Positions 16,985 to 26,476 of a stretch of 64,000 nucleotides of DNA are shown piece after piece; position 1 is the first letter of the stretch, and each line of letters opens with the position of its first letter. Origin of the DNA: Chthoniobacteraceae bacterium (GTDB lineage Bacteria; Verrucomicrobiota; Verrucomicrobiia; Chthoniobacterales; Chthoniobacteraceae); contig JBBCKI010000002.1 of NCBI GenBank assembly GCA_037190965.1, positions 82,543 through 146,542 of the forward strand, given 5' to 3'. A program made the translations under genes and the position numbers. The notes below the pieces were generated by a model. The model was given only the letters and a program-made list of their open reading frames with translations. It did no database searches and was not told where the DNA came from.

Positions 16985-17833
16985 CTATCCCACCCCGAAC
17001 CTCAAGGAGTTTCCCTCATCCAGATCGTCCGGAGGAGCGGAATCGGGCATATCGTCGTTCGACGGATCAACAGGAGGATCCATCGGGAGTAATTCCGGCT
17101 GGGAAAGCACTTGTTCCCCGATGAAGAGTTCGCCCACGAAGACGCCTCCCTTTTCGACGACGATCCCTCGGGCGACGACCGATCCCTCCAGCCACCCTTT
17201 CTTTTCCACGGTGACGGTCCCGTCCACTTGCAGGCGGGCCGCCAACTTTCCTTTGATCGTGACCGACTTCGCCTTGAGAGGCCGAATCGCCTCCACGTCG
17301 GCTCGTTTTTCCACGGTCAACTGCTTCGTGTCCACAGACCCGAGCAGCTTTCCTTTCAGTTTGATACTGGTCTCGCCCGTACAGAGGAGGTTGCCACGGA
17401 TCTTGCCTTCGATGTACGCCTCGCGGCAGGAGACCTTGGCACTGGTGACATCTCCCTTGGAGGTGACGTGCAGTTTACCCTGGGTCTCAATGGTGCGATT
17501 GAGCGACTCTTTGATTTTGAAGTCGCTCAGGTCGATATACACCCCGCAATGAGGGCACGAACTCGATTTGGCCGAATTATTGACGATCTGCGTTCCCGCG
17601 CAATGGAAGCAGGTGATCTCCCATTCCCGATGGCGGGAGAAAATAGTGCCAAGCCGCGCGAGAAGCGACGGTGCGGCATCGCGCGGCTTGGCGAGAGGCT
17701 TTCCGATGTCCCAGTGCTCACTGCACTTCCGGCAAAACGTGCTCTTGGCAAACGGAGACTCAAGTTGCTTGAAGCCGCAATGCGGACATTCTACGGCAAC
17801 TTTGCTGGTAGTTTGTGGAGCCTTTCCGGACAC
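16985..17833 (-). CDS. Bactofilin-domain protein with two N-terminal Zn-ribbons
   Basis: CPHC/CRKC and CFHC/CPHC pairs, then extended beta-helix repeats ending VEKGGVFVG. Confidence 0.8.
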   Translation of the reverse strand: MSGKAPQTTSKVAVECPHCGFKQLESPFAKSTFCRKCSEHWDIGKPLAKPRDAAPSLLARLGTIFSRHREWEITCFHCAGTQIVNNSAKSSSCPHCGVYIDLSDFKIKESLNRTIETQGKLHVTSKGDVTSAKVSCREAYIEGKIRGNLLCTGETSIKLKGKLLGSVDTKQLTVEKRADVEAIRPLKAKSVTIKGKLAARLQVDGTVTVEKKGWLEGSVVARGIVVEKGGVFVGELFIGEQVLSQPELLPMDPPVDPSNDDMPDSAPPDDLDEGNSLRFGVG

Positions 17834-17885
17834 GTAAGCGCCTGTTAATCAGCGGAATTGAGCGAACCTCGAACGATTGGCGATC

Positions 17886-18299
17886 TTAGCGCCCGGTGTT
17901 CACTGCGGCCTTCTGAAGCTCCGGGGTGCGGAGAATCTCGGGCTGCTTCATGGCAACGCGGTTCGGGGTCACTTCGGACTTACCGACGAAGGTGGCGCCT
18001 TCCTCGATCACGAGGCGGGCTGCCTTGAGATCGCCGATCAACTGAGCGCGCCCTTTGAGCTCGCAACGCTCTTCCACGGTGATGTTCCCCTGCACTTTGC
18101 CGTGCACGGTGACGGATTTGGTCTTGATCTCGCCGCGAACCTCGGCGTTTTCGCCGACGATCAGGACGCCGGGAGAAAGGATCTCGCCCTCAACCTTGCC
18201 GTCGATGGTCAGGTCGTTCTGAAACTTGATCGATCCTTTGATTTCGACGTCGGAGGAGAGGTTATTACGGGTGGATGTGGTGGGATTGAGTTCAGCCAT
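17886..18299 (-). CDS. Bactofilin (polymer-forming cytoskeletal protein)
   Basis: IDGKVEGEI...VHGKVQGNI...LVIEEGATFVG. Confidence 0.95.
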   Translation of the reverse strand: MAELNPTTSTRNNLSSDVEIKGSIKFQNDLTIDGKVEGEILSPGVLIVGENAEVRGEIKTKSVTVHGKVQGNITVEERCELKGRAQLIGDLKAARLVIEEGATFVGKSEVTPNRVAMKQPEILRTPELQKAAVNTGR

Positions 18300-18574: not shown

Positions 18575-19987
18575 TTACGCCAATTCTTCCGCCGGATACG
18601 TCCAGATTTCGCTCAACGTCGGGTGATAATGAGGGACGTCGAGGAGATCCCGCGCTGTTGCCCGGAAGCGCATGGCGACCACGATCTCGTGGATCAATTC
18701 GGAAGCGTGCGGCCCGATGACCGCCGCTCCGACGATCTCCTTGGTTTCATCGGAAGTAAGCAGCTTCACGAATCCATCGGTCTCCCCGGCGATCATCGAC
18801 TTGCCGTGATCATCGAACGCGTAGCTTGCGACATTGTAACACACTGAGGATGCTTGAAGCTCCTGCTCTGTCATCCCGACCATCGCCACCTCCGGGGAGC
18901 TGAAAACGGCAAAAAGCCGGAGCCGGTAATTGATTTCTTCCAGCGCGGACGGCATCGCCTTGCCGCCGCGGCTCTTCAGGAGTCGCGCGGCGTTCCGGGC
19001 AGCCAATTCGGCTTGCTGAATGGCGATATGCACGACCTCATAAGGCCCCGACACGTCGCCTGCCGCGAAAATGTGAGGCACGCAGGTCTGCTGGGTCGGT
19101 TCGACATGGATCCGTCCGTGAGTCGCTTCCAGGCCGGCGTTCGCCAGGTTCAATCCTTCCGTGTGCGGCTCCCGGCCCAGCGCGCAGATGATCTCTTCGG
19201 CCTCAACCGAGCGGTTCTTCCCGGATTGCTCAAAATGAACCCGTTTGGCCCCCGTTTCCGTTCGTTCCACCTTTTGAAGGCGAGTGTGGCAGTAGACCCG
19301 CATCCCGCGTTTGCGGTAAGCATTCTCCAGAGCGCAGCTGATGTCGCCATCCATCTCCTTCAAAAGCTGTGGGCTCCGCTGGATGACGGTGACTTCCGTG
19401 CCGAGCGCGGCGTAAAAATGGGAGAATTCCATGGCCGTTGCACCGCCGCCGAGGATGATGACGGAGCGCGGGATGTGCGTCATCTCCAGCACCTTGTCGC
19501 TGTTCCAGAACCCCACTTCCGCCAGGCCGGGAACTTCCACACACTTGAAGCGGGAACCGGTGGCCAGAAGGAATGTCTCGGCGGAAATCGACTTTTTCGT
19601 TCCGTCGGGCAGAGAAATCTCGATGGTATGGGGATCAGTAAACGCAGCCCACCCCCTATGGAGATCAAACCGGCCGCTGGCAAGCTGCTTGGCCCGGTAG
19701 TCGGCAAACTCCTGCACCAACCGCTCTTTGCGGGCGCGGATCTCGGCGCAGGCAAAGCTGATCTCACCGGCGATCAGACCAAAATCTCCGGCCCGTCGGA
19801 GGGTCATGTAGCGGTTGGCCGACTCCAGCAGTGCCTTGCTGGGCATGCATCCGCGCAGGATGCAAAGGCCGCCCAGCTCGTCGCTGCCTTCCACAACCGC
19901 GACCCGCAAGCCAAGCTGGCATGCCGCCGCCGCGCCGTTGTAACCGGCGCTCCCGCCACCGAGGATGATCAGATCGTAATCCTTCAT
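18575..19987 (-). CDS. Class I pyridine nucleotide-disulfide oxidoreductase (dihydrolipoamide dehydrogenase-like)
   Basis: GGGSAG, GGLCILRGCMPSK redox disulfide, HPTLSE. Confidence 0.9.
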   Translation of the reverse strand: MKDYDLIILGGGSAGYNGAAAACQLGLRVAVVEGSDELGGLCILRGCMPSKALLESANRYMTLRRAGDFGLIAGEISFACAEIRARKERLVQEFADYRAKQLASGRFDLHRGWAAFTDPHTIEISLPDGTKKSISAETFLLATGSRFKCVEVPGLAEVGFWNSDKVLEMTHIPRSVIILGGGATAMEFSHFYAALGTEVTVIQRSPQLLKEMDGDISCALENAYRKRGMRVYCHTRLQKVERTETGAKRVHFEQSGKNRSVEAEEIICALGREPHTEGLNLANAGLEATHGRIHVEPTQQTCVPHIFAAGDVSGPYEVVHIAIQQAELAARNAARLLKSRGGKAMPSALEEINYRLRLFAVFSSPEVAMVGMTEQELQASSVCYNVASYAFDDHGKSMIAGETDGFVKLLTSDETKEIVGAAVIGPHASELIHEIVVAMRFRATARDLLDVPHYHPTLSEIWTYPAEELA

Positions 19988-20051: not shown

Positions 20052-20615
20052 CTACAAACTCAGAAAATTCGCAAGCAGCCGTTTTCCTTCGATCGTCAGG
20101 ATCGATTCCGGATGAAACTGCACACCGTGGATTGGAAACTCGCGGTGCCGCAGCCCCATGATCTCCCCCTCGGCAGTTTCCGCCGTAATTTCCAAAACGG
20201 CGGGAAAGGTGTCGCGCTTGACGAGCAGCGAGTGGTAGCGGGTTGCCGCAAACGGGTTCGGCAACCCGGCAAAGATCCCCTTTCCGTCATGATGGATCGG
20301 CGAGGTCTTCCCGTGCATGAGCCGCCCGGCCCGCACGACGTCCCCTCCGAACACCTGACCGATGCACTGATGCCCCAGGCAGACACCAAGCAGCGGGAGA
20401 TGCGGCCCGAAACGGCGAATCACCTCATTGCTTATCCCCGCCTCATTGGGCGTGCAGGGGCCGGGAGAGATGCAAATCCGCGCCGGTTTGAGCTCCGCGA
20501 TGGCGTCCGGAGTAATTTCGTCATTGCGGCGCACCACCATCTCCGCGCCGAGTTCGCCGAAATACTGCACCAGATTGTAGGTAAACGAGTCGTAATTATC
20601 GATGACAAGAAGCAT
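20052..20615 (-). CDS. trpG: Anthranilate synthase component II (glutamine amidotransferase)
   Basis: [31 protein letters not shown] at 20615. Confidence 0.93.
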
Positions 20616-20629
20616 GGCGTTTATCCTTT

Positions 20630-22168
20630 CTAGTGGCGGTGAAGATGAGAGTGAGGGTGTGGCGATCCGGCACGTTTCGCGTGCTCGATGGCGCGCATCA
20701 TTCCCATCGCCTTGTTGACCGTCTCCTGATATTCGCCCTCGGGCGTGGAATCGGCAACGACCCCCGCCCCTGCCTGCACGTAAGCCTTCCCGTCCTTCAG
20801 AACCACGGAGCGCAGGGTGATGCACGAATCGTGGTTTCCATCGAACCCGAAGTAACCGACCGCACCCGCGTAGGTTCCGCGCCGGTTCTTTTCAAGCTGG
20901 TTGATGATCTGCATGGCCCGCACCTTGGGCGAGCCTGAGACTGTCCCCGCCGGGAACGTCGCCCGGAGTACATCGTAGGCATTGCTCCCCTCGCGCAACT
21001 TTCCAACGACGTTGGAAACGATGTGCATGACGTGGCTGTACCGCTCGATCGTCATGAAATCGGTCACGGTAATGCTCCCGAAATCGGCGATCCTGCCGAC
21101 ATCGTTGCGAGCGAGATCGACCAGCATCAGGTGTTCCGCGCGTTCCTTGGGGTCGGCCAGAAGATCGGCGGCGTTGGCGTCGTCTTCCTCCGGGGTTTCC
21201 CCTCGCCTGCGAGTCCCGGCGATGGGCCGGATCGTGATGTTCCCGTCAACGGCGCGGACATGGACTTCCGGCGAACTCCCGACCAGCGAGAACTTCCCGC
21301 CAAATTTAAGGCAGAAGAGGTAGGGCGATGGGTTGATGAAGCGCAACGCCCGGTAGAGCTGGAGCGCGTCGCCGTCGTAATCGGCCTCGAACCGCTGGGA
21401 GAGCACCACCTGAAAGATGTCCCCGGAATGAATGAACTCGTGCGCCTTCTTGACCATCCCGTGAAACTCCTCGCGCGAGGTGTTGCTGCGGGGCGCTTCG
21501 TCCGGAGCTTTTGAGGCATCGCGATGCACGTTGATCTGAGGGAGCAACGCCGGGCGGGCCAGCCGTTCCAGCAATGCCTCGATTTTCTCGCAGGCGATGT
21601 CGTAGGCGGTGCCGGGATCACCCTCCACCAGCGCGTTGGAAAGAATCCGGATCCGGCGCAGGCGATGATCGAAAATCAGGACGGTGTCCGTGATCATGAA
21701 GACCATATCGGGCACGCCGACCTCTCCGGGAGGCAGCGCGCCGATGCTCGGCTCAAAGAAGCGGACCATATCATAAGACATGTAGCCGACCGCGCCCCCG
21801 GCAAACGGAGGCAGCCCCGGCAGCGGTACAGGACGGAACCGGGACATCAGCTTCTGGAGCTCCTGCAACGGCTCGGCCTCGGTCTGGAACTCGCGCGTCT
21901 CCCCTTTTTCGGTGATGCGGATGGTCCGTCCCGTCGCTTCGAACAGAACGCGGGGATCGCTCCCCACAAACGAGTAGCGCCCTCCCTGTTCGCTGTTCTC
22001 CGCCGACTCCAGCAGGAAGGCGTAGCCGTCGCCGCTGTCGAGCTTCCGGAACGCGGAAACCGGGGTCTCCGCGTCGGCGATCAGCTCCGTGCTGACCGGA
22101 ATGAGATTGCCGTGCGCCGCGAGCTCACAAAACTGCTCGCGCGTCGGCTGGATCAAATGTTTTGTCAT
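20630..22168 (-). CDS. trpE: Anthranilate synthase component I
   Basis: [33 protein letters not shown]. Confidence 0.95.
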
Positions 22169-22554
22169 TTGGAATAAGTCTTTTCGGGATCGAAAACTCT
22201 TGGCTCCTCAATCGACTCGGGCGATCCGTCCCGCGTCAGGGCCTGGAAAAAGCAGGAGGAATATCCGGTGTGGCACGCGCCCCCCTCCTGATCGACTTCA
22301 AAGAGCAGCGTGTCGGCGTCGCAATCGACATACCATCGCAGCACCCGCTGGGTGTGCCCGCTCGTCTCCCCCTTCAGCCAGAGCTTCTGGCGGGATCGGC
22401 TCCAGTAATGCATGAACCCTGTCTCCAGCGTTTTCTCGATGGAAAGACGGTTCATCCACGCCATCATCATCACGCGGCCGGCGTTCGGCTTGCCGTTCTG
22501 GGTTTGCTGCACAATGGCTGGGATAAGTCCGTCGGAGTTGAATTTGAAGTTCAT
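22165..22554 (-). CDS. hisI: Phosphoribosyl-AMP cyclohydrolase
   Basis: YWSRSR, KGETSG, DCDADT, CHTGYSSCF; ATGA overlap with trpE. Confidence 0.96.
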   Translation of the reverse strand: MNFKFNSDGLIPAIVQQTQNGKPNAGRVMMMAWMNRLSIEKTLETGFMHYWSRSRQKLWLKGETSGHTQRVLRWYVDCDADTLLFEVDQEGGACHTGYSSCFFQALTRDGSPESIEEPRVFDPEKTYSK

Positions 22555-22570
22555 GAAGCAGTGATTTCGG

Positions 22571-22612
22571 AAAAACAAAAAACCCGACGATTCGGTCATT
22601 TGAATCATCGGG
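22571..22612 (-). terminator. Intrinsic terminator (attenuator) just upstream of hisI
   Basis: Minus strand CCCGATGATTC-aaatgacc-GAATCGTCGGG then TTTTTTGTTTTT. Confidence 0.85.
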
Positions 22613-22689
22613 CGAAAAGTGCGACGCAAGGCGCGACGACTGGGTTAAGCCTGGGAGGTCGAAAATTCCCCGGCAAAACCGCAAGCCCT

Positions 22690-22722
22690 TCAGCGATGCC
22701 ACCAATGCAGGATGCGTCTCAC
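22690..22722 (-). CDS. Putative His/Trp leader peptide MRRILHWWHR
   Basis: GTG AGA CGC ATC CTG CAT TGG TGG CAT CGC TGA, upstream of the terminator and hisI-trpE-trpG. Confidence 0.78.
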   Translation of the reverse strand: MRRILHWWHR

Positions 22723-22729
22723 GAGGGAT

Positions 22730-22758
22730 TGCCTACACCGCCCCGGGAAATGTGGCAA
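22730..22758 (-). promoter_or_regulatory. Putative sigma70 promoter of the leader-hisI-trpEG transcript
   Basis: TTGCCA-17 nt-TAGGCA with 7 nt to the leader GTG; -10 lacks the final T. Confidence 0.5.
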
Positions 22759-23012: not shown

Positions 23013-24113
23013 CTACGCAGCCGCGCCGCCGTTCACCTCGAGCATCCGCAGGGCGTTCACCGCATGGCGAATCTCCTCGCGCAGTTCGGCAAGCATCTCC
23101 CGGGTCACTTCGAGATCCTCGGCCCGATGCTGTGCCCACTGTTGGGCCGTCGTCTGAATCCGCTGGCAGGTCGCGGTGAGATAGGCGTGGGCGGTTTCCG
23201 TAAGACCCGGTGTGGCGAGCTTGATCTCCAGGTGGCGTTGCGCCTCGGCGAGTTCCGCCAACATGATCTTTTCAGCAGGGACGCGGCGGAGCTTCTTGGC
23301 CAGGCCGACTTTGGAAAGCGTCCAGATGATCCACTTCGTCGGATCGAACTGCCACGCCTTCACGCCGTTACGGTAGTCGTGCTGAAACTCGTGATGGTAG
23401 TTATGATACCCCTCACCAAAGGTGACGAGCGCCATGATCCAGGAATCGCGCGCGCTGCAACGGGTGGAATAAGGACGGTCACCCAGATAATGGCAGAGCG
23501 AGTTGATGCAGAAGGTGCAATGCTGGAGGAAAACGACGCGAGCAACGCCCGCGATCAGGAAAGCACCGAGAGCGGAAATCCAGCCACCCCAAGCGAACCC
23601 AATGGCGGCGGGAAGCACAAAGGCCACGAAAGAGCCGATCCAGTGGATGTAGCGGTGCTGCCACATGACGAGCGGGTCCTTCTGGAGATCCGCTACGTTG
23701 TCATAGGGAGGTGGGGGATTGAGCTTGAACATCAACCAGCCAATGTGAGCGTGGAAAAGCCCCTTGTTGATGTTGTAGGGGTCATCATCGTGATCGACAT
23801 GCTTATGGTGCGTCCGATGCTCGCAGGACCAGAGCAGTACGGAATTCTCAAACGCACCGGCGCCGAAGATGATTGTAAAGAGGCGTACGCTCCAATGCGC
23901 CTGGAAGGAGAGGTGCGAAAAGAGACGGTGATAGCCGAGCGTGATGGAAAAACCGCACGCGCAGAACATTACGAAGAACAGGATGATCTGAAACCAGTCG
24001 ATTCCAAAAAACCAAATGTAGGCCGGCACCGCCGTCAGAGAGAGAAACAGGGTACCGATCAGGAATGAACTCGTGGTCCAGTTGACTTTGTCGAAAGGAA
24101 TTCTCGAAAACAT
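23013..24113 (-). CDS. Delta-9-type membrane fatty acid desaturase
   Basis: His boxes HRLFSH, HRTHH, GEGYHNYHH; DPTKW. Confidence 0.94.
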   Translation of the reverse strand: MFSRIPFDKVNWTTSSFLIGTLFLSLTAVPAYIWFFGIDWFQIILFFVMFCACGFSITLGYHRLFSHLSFQAHWSVRLFTIIFGAGAFENSVLLWSCEHRTHHKHVDHDDDPYNINKGLFHAHIGWLMFKLNPPPPYDNVADLQKDPLVMWQHRYIHWIGSFVAFVLPAAIGFAWGGWISALGAFLIAGVARVVFLQHCTFCINSLCHYLGDRPYSTRCSARDSWIMALVTFGEGYHNYHHEFQHDYRNGVKAWQFDPTKWIIWTLSKVGLAKKLRRVPAEKIMLAELAEAQRHLEIKLATPGLTETAHAYLTATCQRIQTTAQQWAQHRAEDLEVTREMLAELREEIRHAVNALRMLEVNGGAAA

Positions 24114-24287: not shown

Positions 24288-25733
24288 CTATTCCGCCGCC
24301 GCAGGCCGGCTCTTGACCTCGCCGTTGGCAGGTGCGGGGCGTCCCCCGTCGGCCTGAGGAATCTCCATCTTCCCGAGGTAATCAGGGAGCCGCAACCCGG
24401 CCTGGCGGGCGAGTTCCTGCAACGGTGGGAGGCTGCGGATGAGGCCCGAGAGGAAATTGGAGGTGGAGCCCCCGTTCTCGCCGCCGTTGCCGCTGTCCCA
24501 GACGGTGATTTTGTCGATCTTGATGCCGGAAATCGCCTTCGCCTGGGCGTCGACGAGCTTCGGCATCTGCTCGCCAAGCAGTAGGGTGATGGCAATTTGC
24601 GGGTTGTTCCCGGCAGCCGCGATCATGTTCTTGAAGCCGTCAGCCTTCGCCTCAAGGATTTGCTTGGTGCCTTCGGCCTCCGCGCCAAGCCGGGAGGAGA
24701 TCCCGAACGCGTCGGCTTCCGCGGTGGCCTTGATGCTGGCGGCCTGCGCGTTGGCGTTGATCTTGATCTGCTCGGCGTCCGCTTCCGCCATGACCATGAT
24801 TTTCTGTTTCTGCACCTCGGCGGGGATAACCTCGTTGGCGTACCGGGTGGCCTGCTCCACTTCGGCGCGGGCGAGTTCCGCTTCGCGCTTGGCGGTGTAG
24901 GAGTCGCGTTCGGCATTCGCGTTGGCGACCCGCTCCGCCGTGACGGCGAGCCGGTTGGCCTCGGCAATCTGGACGCTCAAAGCGGCGTTCGAGTTTGCGA
25001 TTTCGATTTGGGCCAGGTTCTTCCCCTTGGTCCCTTCGGCGATGGCATTGGCCACCTCGACCTCTTTTGCCCGGTTCGCCTGCGCCGCGCCGATGTCACC
25101 GTCGCGTTCGGCTTCGGCGACTTTCACCTTGGCTTCCGCGATGGCTTTGGAGGCGGCCTCTTTACCCAGCGCCTCGATGTAGCCGCTCTCGTCGGTCACG
25201 TCCTGAATGTTGACGTTGATGAGCCGCAACCCGACTTTCTTCAACTCGACTTCCACACCGTTGGCGATGTTGGAAATCAGTTTATCGCGGTCGGAGTTGA
25301 TCTCCTCGATGCTCATTGTGGCGATGACCACGCGCATCTGGCCGAAGATGATGTCCTTGGCGAGATCGCGGATACTCTCGTGCGTGAGCCCGAGAAGCCG
25401 CTCCGCCGCATTTTCCATCACGCCCATTTCCGTCGCGACACCCACGGTGAAGGTGGACGGAGTATTGACGCGGATGTTCTGCCGGGAGAGCGCGCCTTTG
25501 AGCGGGATCTCAATCGGCATCGGAGTCAGGTCGAGATACTGATAAGACTGGAAAAGCGGCCAGATAAAGGTGGCCCCACCATGGATACATTTGGCGGACT
25601 TTCCCCCGCCGACTTTTCCGTAAACGACCAGCACGCGGTCGCTCGGGCAGCGTTTATAACGACTGCCGAGGGCAAGAACTGCCGCTCCGAGAAGAACAAA
25701 AACACCTCCAATAAGGATCAACGCTTCAAACAT
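24288..25733 (-). CDS. Flotillin / SPFH family protein
   Basis: N-terminal TM, SPFH domain, AEA-rich coiled coil, KIDKITVWD. Confidence 0.93.
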   Translation of the reverse strand: MFEALILIGGVFVLLGAAVLALGSRYKRCPSDRVLVVYGKVGGGKSAKCIHGGATFIWPLFQSYQYLDLTPMPIEIPLKGALSRQNIRVNTPSTFTVGVATEMGVMENAAERLLGLTHESIRDLAKDIIFGQMRVVIATMSIEEINSDRDKLISNIANGVEVELKKVGLRLINVNIQDVTDESGYIEALGKEAASKAIAEAKVKVAEAERDGDIGAAQANRAKEVEVANAIAEGTKGKNLAQIEIANSNAALSVQIAEANRLAVTAERVANANAERDSYTAKREAELARAEVEQATRYANEVIPAEVQKQKIMVMAEADAEQIKINANAQAASIKATAEADAFGISSRLGAEAEGTKQILEAKADGFKNMIAAAGNNPQIAITLLLGEQMPKLVDAQAKAISGIKIDKITVWDSGNGGENGGSTSNFLSGLIRSLPPLQELARQAGLRLPDYLGKMEIPQADGGRPAPANGEVKSRPAAAE

Positions 25734-25802
25734 AGGACTCTCCTTTCAATTCACCGGTTGGTTGGACAAGAGAGGATGGGCTCTTAAGGAATCAGTGGTT
25801 CC

Positions 25803-26363
25803 CTAACCCACCCTCTCGACTTTGACGGTTTCTTGATCAATCACCGCCAAAACTCTTATTTTCTCGCCGCTGGCGATCTCTTCGTCACTCATTGCGCCGA
25901 GCGTGACCATGCGCGACTGCGCGACCACTTGAATCTGACCGCCACTTTGACGCGACGGGATGCGAATGTACGCCGTGCCGACTTTTCCGACACTGTTGCG
26001 AATGTCGAAGGTATTATCCTCCTTCAATCCGTTGAAGGCGCGCATGAGAAAGAAAAATACCGCCCCGACCGCCAGCCCGGTCGCCGCGCCGCCGAGCGCT
26101 GCAACGGGAATGCTGAATTTCGCATTCAAGAGGAGCGAGCCGACGGAGCCGAACCCGAGGGCGAACCCGGCCACGGTTGTCCATGAAATGGCATGGCCTT
26201 CATCGCCGACACCGTCATGTAAATCCACGTGATCACCGAAACCAACCAACCTCAGGATGATCTGGAGCAAAGCCATCGCCAACCCGATCACCGCGATAAT
26301 GCGGAAGATCTGATGCACCAAAGTCCCCTCACTGATCCAGTCGTTAATGCCCAGTAATCCCAT
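25803..26363 (-). CDS. NfeD-like membrane protein
   Basis: Three hydrophobic helices plus OB-fold tail (VGKVGTAYIRIP...GQIQV); upstream of flotillin. Confidence 0.85.
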   Translation of the reverse strand: MGLLGINDWISEGTLVHQIFRIIAVIGLAMALLQIILRLVGFGDHVDLHDGVGDEGHAISWTTVAGFALGFGSVGSLLLNAKFSIPVAALGGAATGLAVGAVFFFLMRAFNGLKEDNTFDIRNSVGKVGTAYIRIPSRQSGGQIQVVAQSRMVTLGAMSDEEIASGEKIRVLAVIDQETVKVERVG

Positions 26364-26476
26364 GGTAAAAGCCTCCGGGCGGAACAAGTAGTGCTTTCCC
26401 CCCGGCGAAGCAACCAATTCTTCGCATTTTCGCCACATTGCCTCCGGGGCAAAATCTCTGTAACTTCCATCGGTTT

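Follow-up and report, generated by a model that had tools for sequence, protein, structure and literature searches.

A putative transcription attenuator with conserved His and Trp codons ahead of hisI-trpE-trpG in Chthoniobacterales

Background

In the trpL leader of E. coli (RF00513, Trp_leader), a short open reading frame (ORF) with tandem Trp codons lies upstream of trpE, together with mutually exclusive anti-antiterminator, antiterminator and terminator structures, according to passages of PMC6614838 and PMC1183508, and in the hisL leaders of E. coli and Salmonella (RF00514) the His codons of a leader ORF govern termination before the his genes (passages of PMC3896937). The trpL-trpE(G) system of Sinorhizobium meliloti has a leaderless Trp leader that controls only trpE(G), the other trp genes being located elsewhere (passages of PMC6614838). 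Single leaders that read several amino acids are described for ilvBNC of Corynebacterium and for the ilvB motifs (passages of PMC10272879), and leaderless short ORFs serve as amino-acid sensors in the polycysteine attenuators of mycobacteria (10.1101/834739). The element described here is a candidate attenuator on the minus strand of a 64,000-nucleotide stretch of a Chthoniobacteraceae genome (hereafter the window; assembly GCA_037190965.1, contig JBBCKI010000002.1, positions 82,543 to 146,542), where a ten-codon leader ORF with His and Trp codons precedes hisI, trpE and trpG.

Further multi-amino-acid attenuators are thrL and ilvL, and the ilvBNC leader of C. glutamicum is reportedly translated without a ribosome binding site. 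To our knowledge, all known multi-amino-acid attenuators serve one branched pathway. Comparative and modelling evidence leaves little doubt that the element in the window belongs to the ribosome-mediated transcription attenuators, and the same evidence makes it probable that it senses His as well as Trp in controlling hisI-trpE-trpG. A first-pass annotation had proposed that one leader reads the charging of both tRNA-His and tRNA-Trp, a proposal supported by ORF conservation, codon statistics and constrained folds.

A conserved leader ORF

The leader ORF (22722-22690, minus strand) is present as the first-pass annotation described it, with ten codons and a stop and with CAT-TGG-TGG-CAT as codons 6-9, except that its start codon is GTG and not ATG (VRRILHWWHR instead of MRRILHWWHR). 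Homologous ORFs were found in at least 143 loci. The control codons His6-Trp7-Trp8 (22699..22707) are conserved and double as the 5' strand of the anti-antiterminator. His9 (22696..22698) is variable, sits at the edge of the control window and is matched by His in only 39 of 88 anchored leaders, which reduces the conserved core from the HWWH first proposed to His-Trp(-Trp).

Relatives were sampled in two ways. Sixty related genomes were searched with HisI and TrpE and the DNA upstream was examined, and a peptide-free pattern built from the RNA arms only was run on genome and metagenome contigs, giving at least 120 matches on each; about half of these matches (at least 240 together) lacked hisI, trpE and a leader alike and were rejected as chance terminator matches. 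A peptide-blind rule then recovered at least 136 leaders among at least 169 loci, and a further seven were picked manually by means of a motif in which the codons take part; the set does not include L142, which is a duplicate, L235, which is truncated, L241, whose start is ambiguous, or L056. Removal of copies more than 90% identical left 96 non-redundant leaders, on which the leader counts are based.

His is present in all 96 of these leaders and so is Trp, with Trp-Trp in 83, against a background of 3.3% His and 0.9% Trp in six proteins of the window. Codons 2 to about 5 vary widely. Leader length ranges from 7 to 11 codons and shifts in whole codons, with start, frame and stop kept and all three stop codons in use. 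Three leaders fall outside this range: in L006/L142, L250 and L265 the stop has been lost and the ORF (17-18 codons) crosses the antiterminator arm, so that these copies may be degenerate or act by run-through.

Upstream of the leader lie a -35-like hexamer, TTGCCA (22753..22758), and, 17 nucleotides (nt) further on and 7 nt before the GTG, a -10-like hexamer, TAGGCA (22730..22735), a site that a sigma-70 consensus scan does not list. With start codons picked blind to promoters, TTG occurs 33-40 nt upstream of the start in 92 of the 96 leaders versus 6 of 96 in a control window, a count that is not fully independent because most leaders were gathered by a rule requiring a promoter-like site, and TA occurs 11-15 nt upstream in 85 versus 3. 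Start codons (GTG in 110 of 136 leaders, ATG in 26) lie 5-10 nt downstream of the TA box, and Shine-Dalgarno-like words precede only 7 of the 96 ORFs. The spacing of the promoter-like boxes and the scarcity of Shine-Dalgarno words suggest that the ORF is probably leaderless, with transcription starting at or next to the GTG, a feature that the first-pass annotation had overlooked.

Phylogenetic range

Within the family to which the window belongs, the leader is present in 32 of 34 assessable hisI loci (35 in total, one cut by a contig end). The two exceptions, L026 (G019) and L061 (G030), have linked hisI-trpE, and their HisI proteins nest among those of leader-bearing loci, which suggests secondary loss; the resolution of the HisI tree is low, with 11 of its 103 branches starred. 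In the remaining families of the order, His/Trp leaders precede 4 of 8 linked hisI-trpE loci; in three of these, L030 (G046), L055 (G054) and L056 (G040), the downstream RNA departs from the consensus of the family. A strong terminator is missing from L055 and L056, and control could therefore be translational there.

Among the pattern matches listed, leader-bearing records are all from Verrucomicrobiota where titled, mostly Chthoniobacteraceae, Chthoniobacter or Spartobacteria. Records titled Prosthecobacter or Verrucomicrobiales also carry the leader (L154 and L090), and the HisI of L154 groups with that of Chthoniobacterales; labelling, binning or transfer could account for these records. 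Among the leader loci collected, the genes behind the leader are hisI in 138 of 138 with room for it, trpE in 83 of 83 and trpG in 37 of 42, and none of the listed matches (at least 240) is a copy of the leader RNA without hisI behind it. No such leader was seen in the order at 10 trpE and 15 hisI loci that stand alone (contig ends truncate two of them), elsewhere in the class at 80 loci (40 led by hisI, 40 by trpE), or at 52 hisI loci of other Verrucomicrobiota and Planctomycetota. A few short Trp-containing ORFs with a hairpin among the 80 class loci were rejected, since they lie inside an upstream hisF. The element is conserved in Chthoniobacterales.

The gene neighbourhood extends further than the leader. 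Adjacent hisF-hisI-trpE is common in other Verrucomicrobiota (L311-L347, L463 and L464), hisF stands directly ahead of trpE in L352, L353, L355, L360 and L363, and hisF matches were obtained at 31 of the 80 class loci and at both linked hisI-trpE loci from other classes. Because these neighbourhoods occur outside the leader-bearing group, the hisI-trpE adjacency appears to be older than the leader.

A predicted RNA switch

After the leader stop come, in order, a single nucleotide, GGGC, a hairpin, a switch segment, a terminator, a U-tract and hisI. The antiterminator 5' arm GGGC (22685..22688) pairs with GCCC; the hairpin that follows (22643..22680) is free in sequence and length and keeps its pairing; the conserved switch segment (22619..22640) is predicted either to pair with the His and Trp codons in free RNA or to fold on itself within the antiterminator. 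The intrinsic terminator hairpin (22582..22613) has 12 pairs including a closing G-U, its first four bases being the GCCC that forms the antiterminator 3' arm, and the U-tract (22571..22582) ends 16 nt ahead of the hisI ATG at 22554. The first-pass annotation had noticed this terminator, and its 11-bp stem with T-tract (22612-22571) and gap of about 17 nt are corrected accordingly to 12 pairs at 22613-22582 and 16 nt; of the antiterminator that it proposed, GGGC:GCCC is supported, and the TGCGG:TCGCA extension is absent from the predicted fold.

Taken alone, neither the number of terminators predicted in 1.5 kb (one, versus a shuffle mean of 1.3, not above chance) nor the fold of the leader region (z = -2.0) is remarkable; the element is considered real because it is conserved across relatives. 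In an alignment of 58 of the 96 sequences, picked for diversity, all 58 pair GGGC with GCCC. In the variable hairpin, 5 of 6 base pairs have changed in both strands, and 78% of cells are paired; the core pairs of the switch segment (alignment columns 120-122 with 140-142) are retained in 54, 57 and 56 of the 58 sequences; and 97% of cells are paired across the 12 terminator pairs, in a set partly gathered by a pattern containing the same arms. Spacing is similarly constrained in the 88 leaders that could be anchored (eight were dropped, four with divergent RNA and four with other spacing): the GGGC arm lies 16-19 nt past the first Trp codon, and the leader stop lies 4-8 nt ahead of the arm in 86.

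These 88 leaders were folded up to the left arm of the terminator, with the part covered by a ribosome forced to be unpaired and footprints of 6-12 nt. The mean probability of the antiterminator is 0.18 in free RNA, 0.95-0.99 with a ribosome at the His codon and 0.98-1.0 at the first Trp codon, so that a stall at either codon is predicted to favour the antiterminator. The computed effect of a stall at the +2 codon, the position of His9, depends on the footprint assumed (1.0, 0.58 or 0.0). In the leader of the window, with a 12-nt footprint, the probability is 0.99 at His6 and Trp7 and 0 at Trp8 and His9. With respect to the traits of ribosome-mediated attenuators, a terminator lies between the ORF and the first gene (weak or different in L055 and L056), and an antiterminator that excludes the terminator, freed at the control codons and covered at the stop, is predicted by computation.

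Selection on the His codon

Among the 88 anchored leaders, the three control positions are CAY in 83, TGG in 87 and TGG in 81. The codon preceding the first Trp is CAT in 71, CAC in 12, CGC in 3, TAT in 1 and CTT in 1, and never CAA or CAG, so that the His codon, which the first-pass annotation had asked to see conserved, does not vary freely. Since the ORF is conserved as well, two outcomes that the annotation had named as counting against its proposal did not occur.

The best surviving alternative, which we consider unlikely, is that of an attenuator responding to Trp, with the His codon kept for its pairing with a segment constrained by two alternative helices and any response to His being incidental. 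The commonest free fold does pair the bases of the His codon with the switch segment, structural demands give the +2 codon an initial C in 87 of the 88 leaders, trpE is the chief target, and a stall on an Arg codon next to the Trp codons of the E. coli trp leader also blocks attenuation (passages of PMC1183508). RNA structure explains part of the conservation of the His codon, because the codon pairs in free RNA and disfavoured replacements cost 1-2 kcal/mol. However, in-silico replacement of the His codon by CGC, CGU, CAG or UGC leaves the fold as stable or more stable (mean changes of -1.8, -0.8, -0.5 and -0.3 kcal/mol), and these structure-compatible Arg, Gln and Cys codons are almost unused (3, 0, 0 and 0 of 88), only the synonymous change being common. 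Conservation does not follow pairing base by base either: the middle A of the codon is 95% conserved and predicted to be paired in 58% of leaders, the base immediately upstream shows 74% conservation and pairs in 75%, and the third base is always U or C though paired in 48%. At the +2 codon, where C is structurally favoured, CAY outnumbers CAR by 39 to 4.

The eight leaders without the canonical His also speak against a structural role alone, as all eight keep His elsewhere; a second His is found in 44 of the 88 canonical leaders. Seven of the eight could be placed on the HisI tree, on six separate branches; with about seven independent events, the retention of His in every exception has a probability of roughly 1 in 100 by chance, a loose estimate given kinship and the weakly resolved tree. 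In the related L154 (H-W-R-W-W-H) and L248 (Y-W-H-W-W-H) the position of His is swapped, and His and Trp persist in L030, L055 and L056 in spite of their different downstream RNA. Alphaproteobacteria served as an outside control, RF00513 having given no match over its cut-off in 151 Gammaproteobacteria: upstream of 22 trpE(G) genes from that group, 13 Trp leaders were identified, of which none has His two codons or less from the Trp run and three have His anywhere. His looks to be selected as a codon and not solely for RNA pairing.

A second alternative is that selection acts on His, as a codon or as a residue, for some other reason, such as tuning ribosome speed or the stall at the next Trp, or a role of the peptide, with His supply not being the signal. 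His stands directly before Trp in 88 of the 96 leaders, CAT is strongly favoured over CAC (71 versus 12), and a trans-acting role has been reported for the trp leader peptide of S. meliloti (PMC7298713); yet the position of His shifts in several lineages, peptide length (7-11 residues) and N-terminal sequence are free, and a his gene invariably heads the operon, which together make this explanation quite improbable. A riboswitch or protein-binding leader with the ORF as a by-product of conserved RNA sequence would account for the long conserved motifs, the covarying hairpin and the rarity of Shine-Dalgarno sequences ahead of the ORF, but is hardly credible given the whole-codon length changes with start, frame and stop preserved, the use of all three stops, the fixed distance from stop to antiterminator arm and the lack of a matching Rfam family.

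Proposed mechanism

In the mechanism that we favour, an attenuator responding to both His and Trp, transcription would begin at the GTG or immediately beside it, and a ribosome would initiate on the leaderless ORF. In free RNA, the His-Trp-Trp codons would pair with the switch segment, GGGC would be tied up and the terminator would form. With both amino acids plentiful, the ribosome would reach the stop codon and cover GGGC, and the terminator would again form. With His or Trp scarce, the ribosome would wait on the corresponding codon and the switch segment would fold on itself, allowing GGGC to pair with the GCCC of the terminator left arm and polymerase to read into hisI-trpE-trpG. The response to His is probably weaker than that to Trp, because there is usually one His codon to two Trp codons; it may be modest, since few regulatory codons give low sensitivity in modelling and the E. 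coli trp leader already responds to stalling on a neighbouring Arg codon (passages of PMC1183508).

As hisI is co-transcribed with trpE, an attenuator reading Trp only would curtail His synthesis whenever Trp is abundant, and the simplest rationale for the His codon may be that it overrides such a shut-off. The suggestion of the first-pass annotation that the leader couples two pathways consuming phosphoribosyl pyrophosphate (PRPP) is possible but speculative, hisI being the sole his gene of the operon and not encoding the committed step. More tentatively, and with slightly less than even confidence, the element may be a two-pathway OR-gate, in which His shortage alone induces anthranilate synthase and Trp shortage alone induces hisI, and which arose on an old hisF-hisI-trpE junction after hisF had left.

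Several observations count against a response to both amino acids. On the RNA side, the antiterminator pairs of the 58-sequence alignment are invariant and thus give no support from covariation; the antiterminator probability of 0 with a ribosome at the leader stop is imposed by the folding constraint itself and is not an independent result; 13 of the 88 leaders fold as antiterminator even when free; and stalls one or two codons before His, at codons that are not conserved, also yield the antiterminator with longer footprints. As to the His codon, 81% of free folds have its C paired, a Tyr, Leu, Pro, Asn or Asp codon in its place would make the fold 1-2 kcal/mol less stable, and in three of the eight exceptions (L051, L055 and L112) the sole remaining His follows the first Trp, on the margin of the control window as computed. 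Related leaders are not independent, the HisI tree is weakly resolved, and no copy without hisI was found that could show loss of His. Finally, hisG, hisD, hisF, hisBHA, trpD, trpC and trpB are spread over seven other contigs of the same genome and no similar leader was seen at these other his and trp genes, and His control would therefore reach just one mid-pathway his gene, hisI.

The operon and its surroundings

All three genes of the operon, in the order first annotated, pass curated cut-offs: hisI (22165..22554, minus strand) encodes a phosphoribosyl-AMP cyclohydrolase of 129 amino acids (aa; NF000768, 157.7 bits versus a cut-off of 126), trpE (20630..22168, minus strand) an anthranilate synthase component I of 512 aa (TIGR00564, 564.7 versus 517.7 bits), and trpG (20052..20615, minus strand) a glutamine amidotransferase subunit of 187 aa (TIGR00566, 266.1 versus 121.05 bits, a subfamily model that does not tell TrpG from PabA). 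The reported ATGA overlap of hisI and trpE is confirmed at 22168-22165. The attenuator would act on the first step of the trp pathway and on a single his step in mid-pathway, comparable to S. meliloti, where trpE(G) alone is attenuated (passages of PMC6614838). A genome-wide scan for units of a leaderless ORF and a terminator, blind to leaders started from a Shine-Dalgarno sequence, gave 63 candidates, none of the others having an evident attenuator peptide.

There is no Shine-Dalgarno-like word in 22555-22570, before the hisI ATG, and several hisI and trpE genes of related genomes have promoter-like boxes directly before the start codon. The order also differs in another His step: hisE (phosphoribosyl-ATP pyrophosphatase, TIGR03188) was found over its cut-off in none of 41 genomes of the order (G000 and 40 relatives), versus 14 of 14 control genomes, and HisI in the genomes without hisE has the short form with no fusion partner. 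A weak Pfam match, the sole one in G000, lies within a 327-aa protein that we take to resemble MazG; the HisE step in the order may be filled by another enzyme.

Behind trpG, at a distance of 64 nt, is a dihydrolipoamide dehydrogenase or mercuric reductase-like oxidoreductase gene (18575-19987, minus strand) that scores under all listed cut-offs and was not seen at the other loci checked, most of which end short of it. Two adjoining minus-strand ORFs of 137 and 282 aa (16985-18299) contain repeats, presumably bactofilin domains, and have no NCBIfam match over cut-off. On the other side, a flotillin-like gene (24288-26438, minus strand; NF058507, under cut-off) lies behind a gene for a small membrane protein and upstream of a fatty-acid desaturase-like gene (23013-24113).

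Comparison with known attenuators

No match to any Rfam family at gathering score was obtained in the window, and none to RF00513 or RF00514 at E values up to 10. In the literature covered, main texts that do not include two surveys comparing attenuation systems, neither a His/Trp leader before hisI-trpE nor any attenuator from Chthoniobacterales was found; the main-text passages of PMC8632094, PMC11109978, PMC3766115 and PMC4833913 do not mention Verrucomicrobia, and their supplements could list such a leader. The element provides Chthoniobacterales, Verrucomicrobiota of soil and freshwater, with a regulatory RNA that Rfam does not contain. It is also a small natural system in which to ask how the codons of a leader adjust to the genes downstream and how much control a single codon exerts. 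If the OR-gate is real, it would amount to cross-pathway control exerted in bacteria at the level of RNA, and leader codons would be seen to track the content of an operon.

In contrast to trpL of E. coli, the element has a conserved His codon, hisI as its first gene, a probable leaderless start, and an antiterminator whose short stem closes two inner hairpins. The target in S. meliloti is a fused trpE(G), whereas here it is hisI-trpE-trpG, and the alphaproteobacterial leaders have no His next to the Trp run (0 of 13). Instead of the seven consecutive His codons of hisL, ahead of a whole his operon, there are one to three His codons accompanied by Trp codons, ahead of a single his gene. The mycobacterial polycysteine attenuators sense a single amino acid through long Cys runs and belong to another phylum. 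Each of the multi-amino-acid attenuators reads the products of one branched pathway, whereas the His and Trp pathways are separate and share only PRPP (passages of PMC3896937). The mechanism proposed for the Chthoniobacterales leader is thus that of the textbook, and what appears to be new is the joining of two separate pathways in one leader of 7-11 codons.
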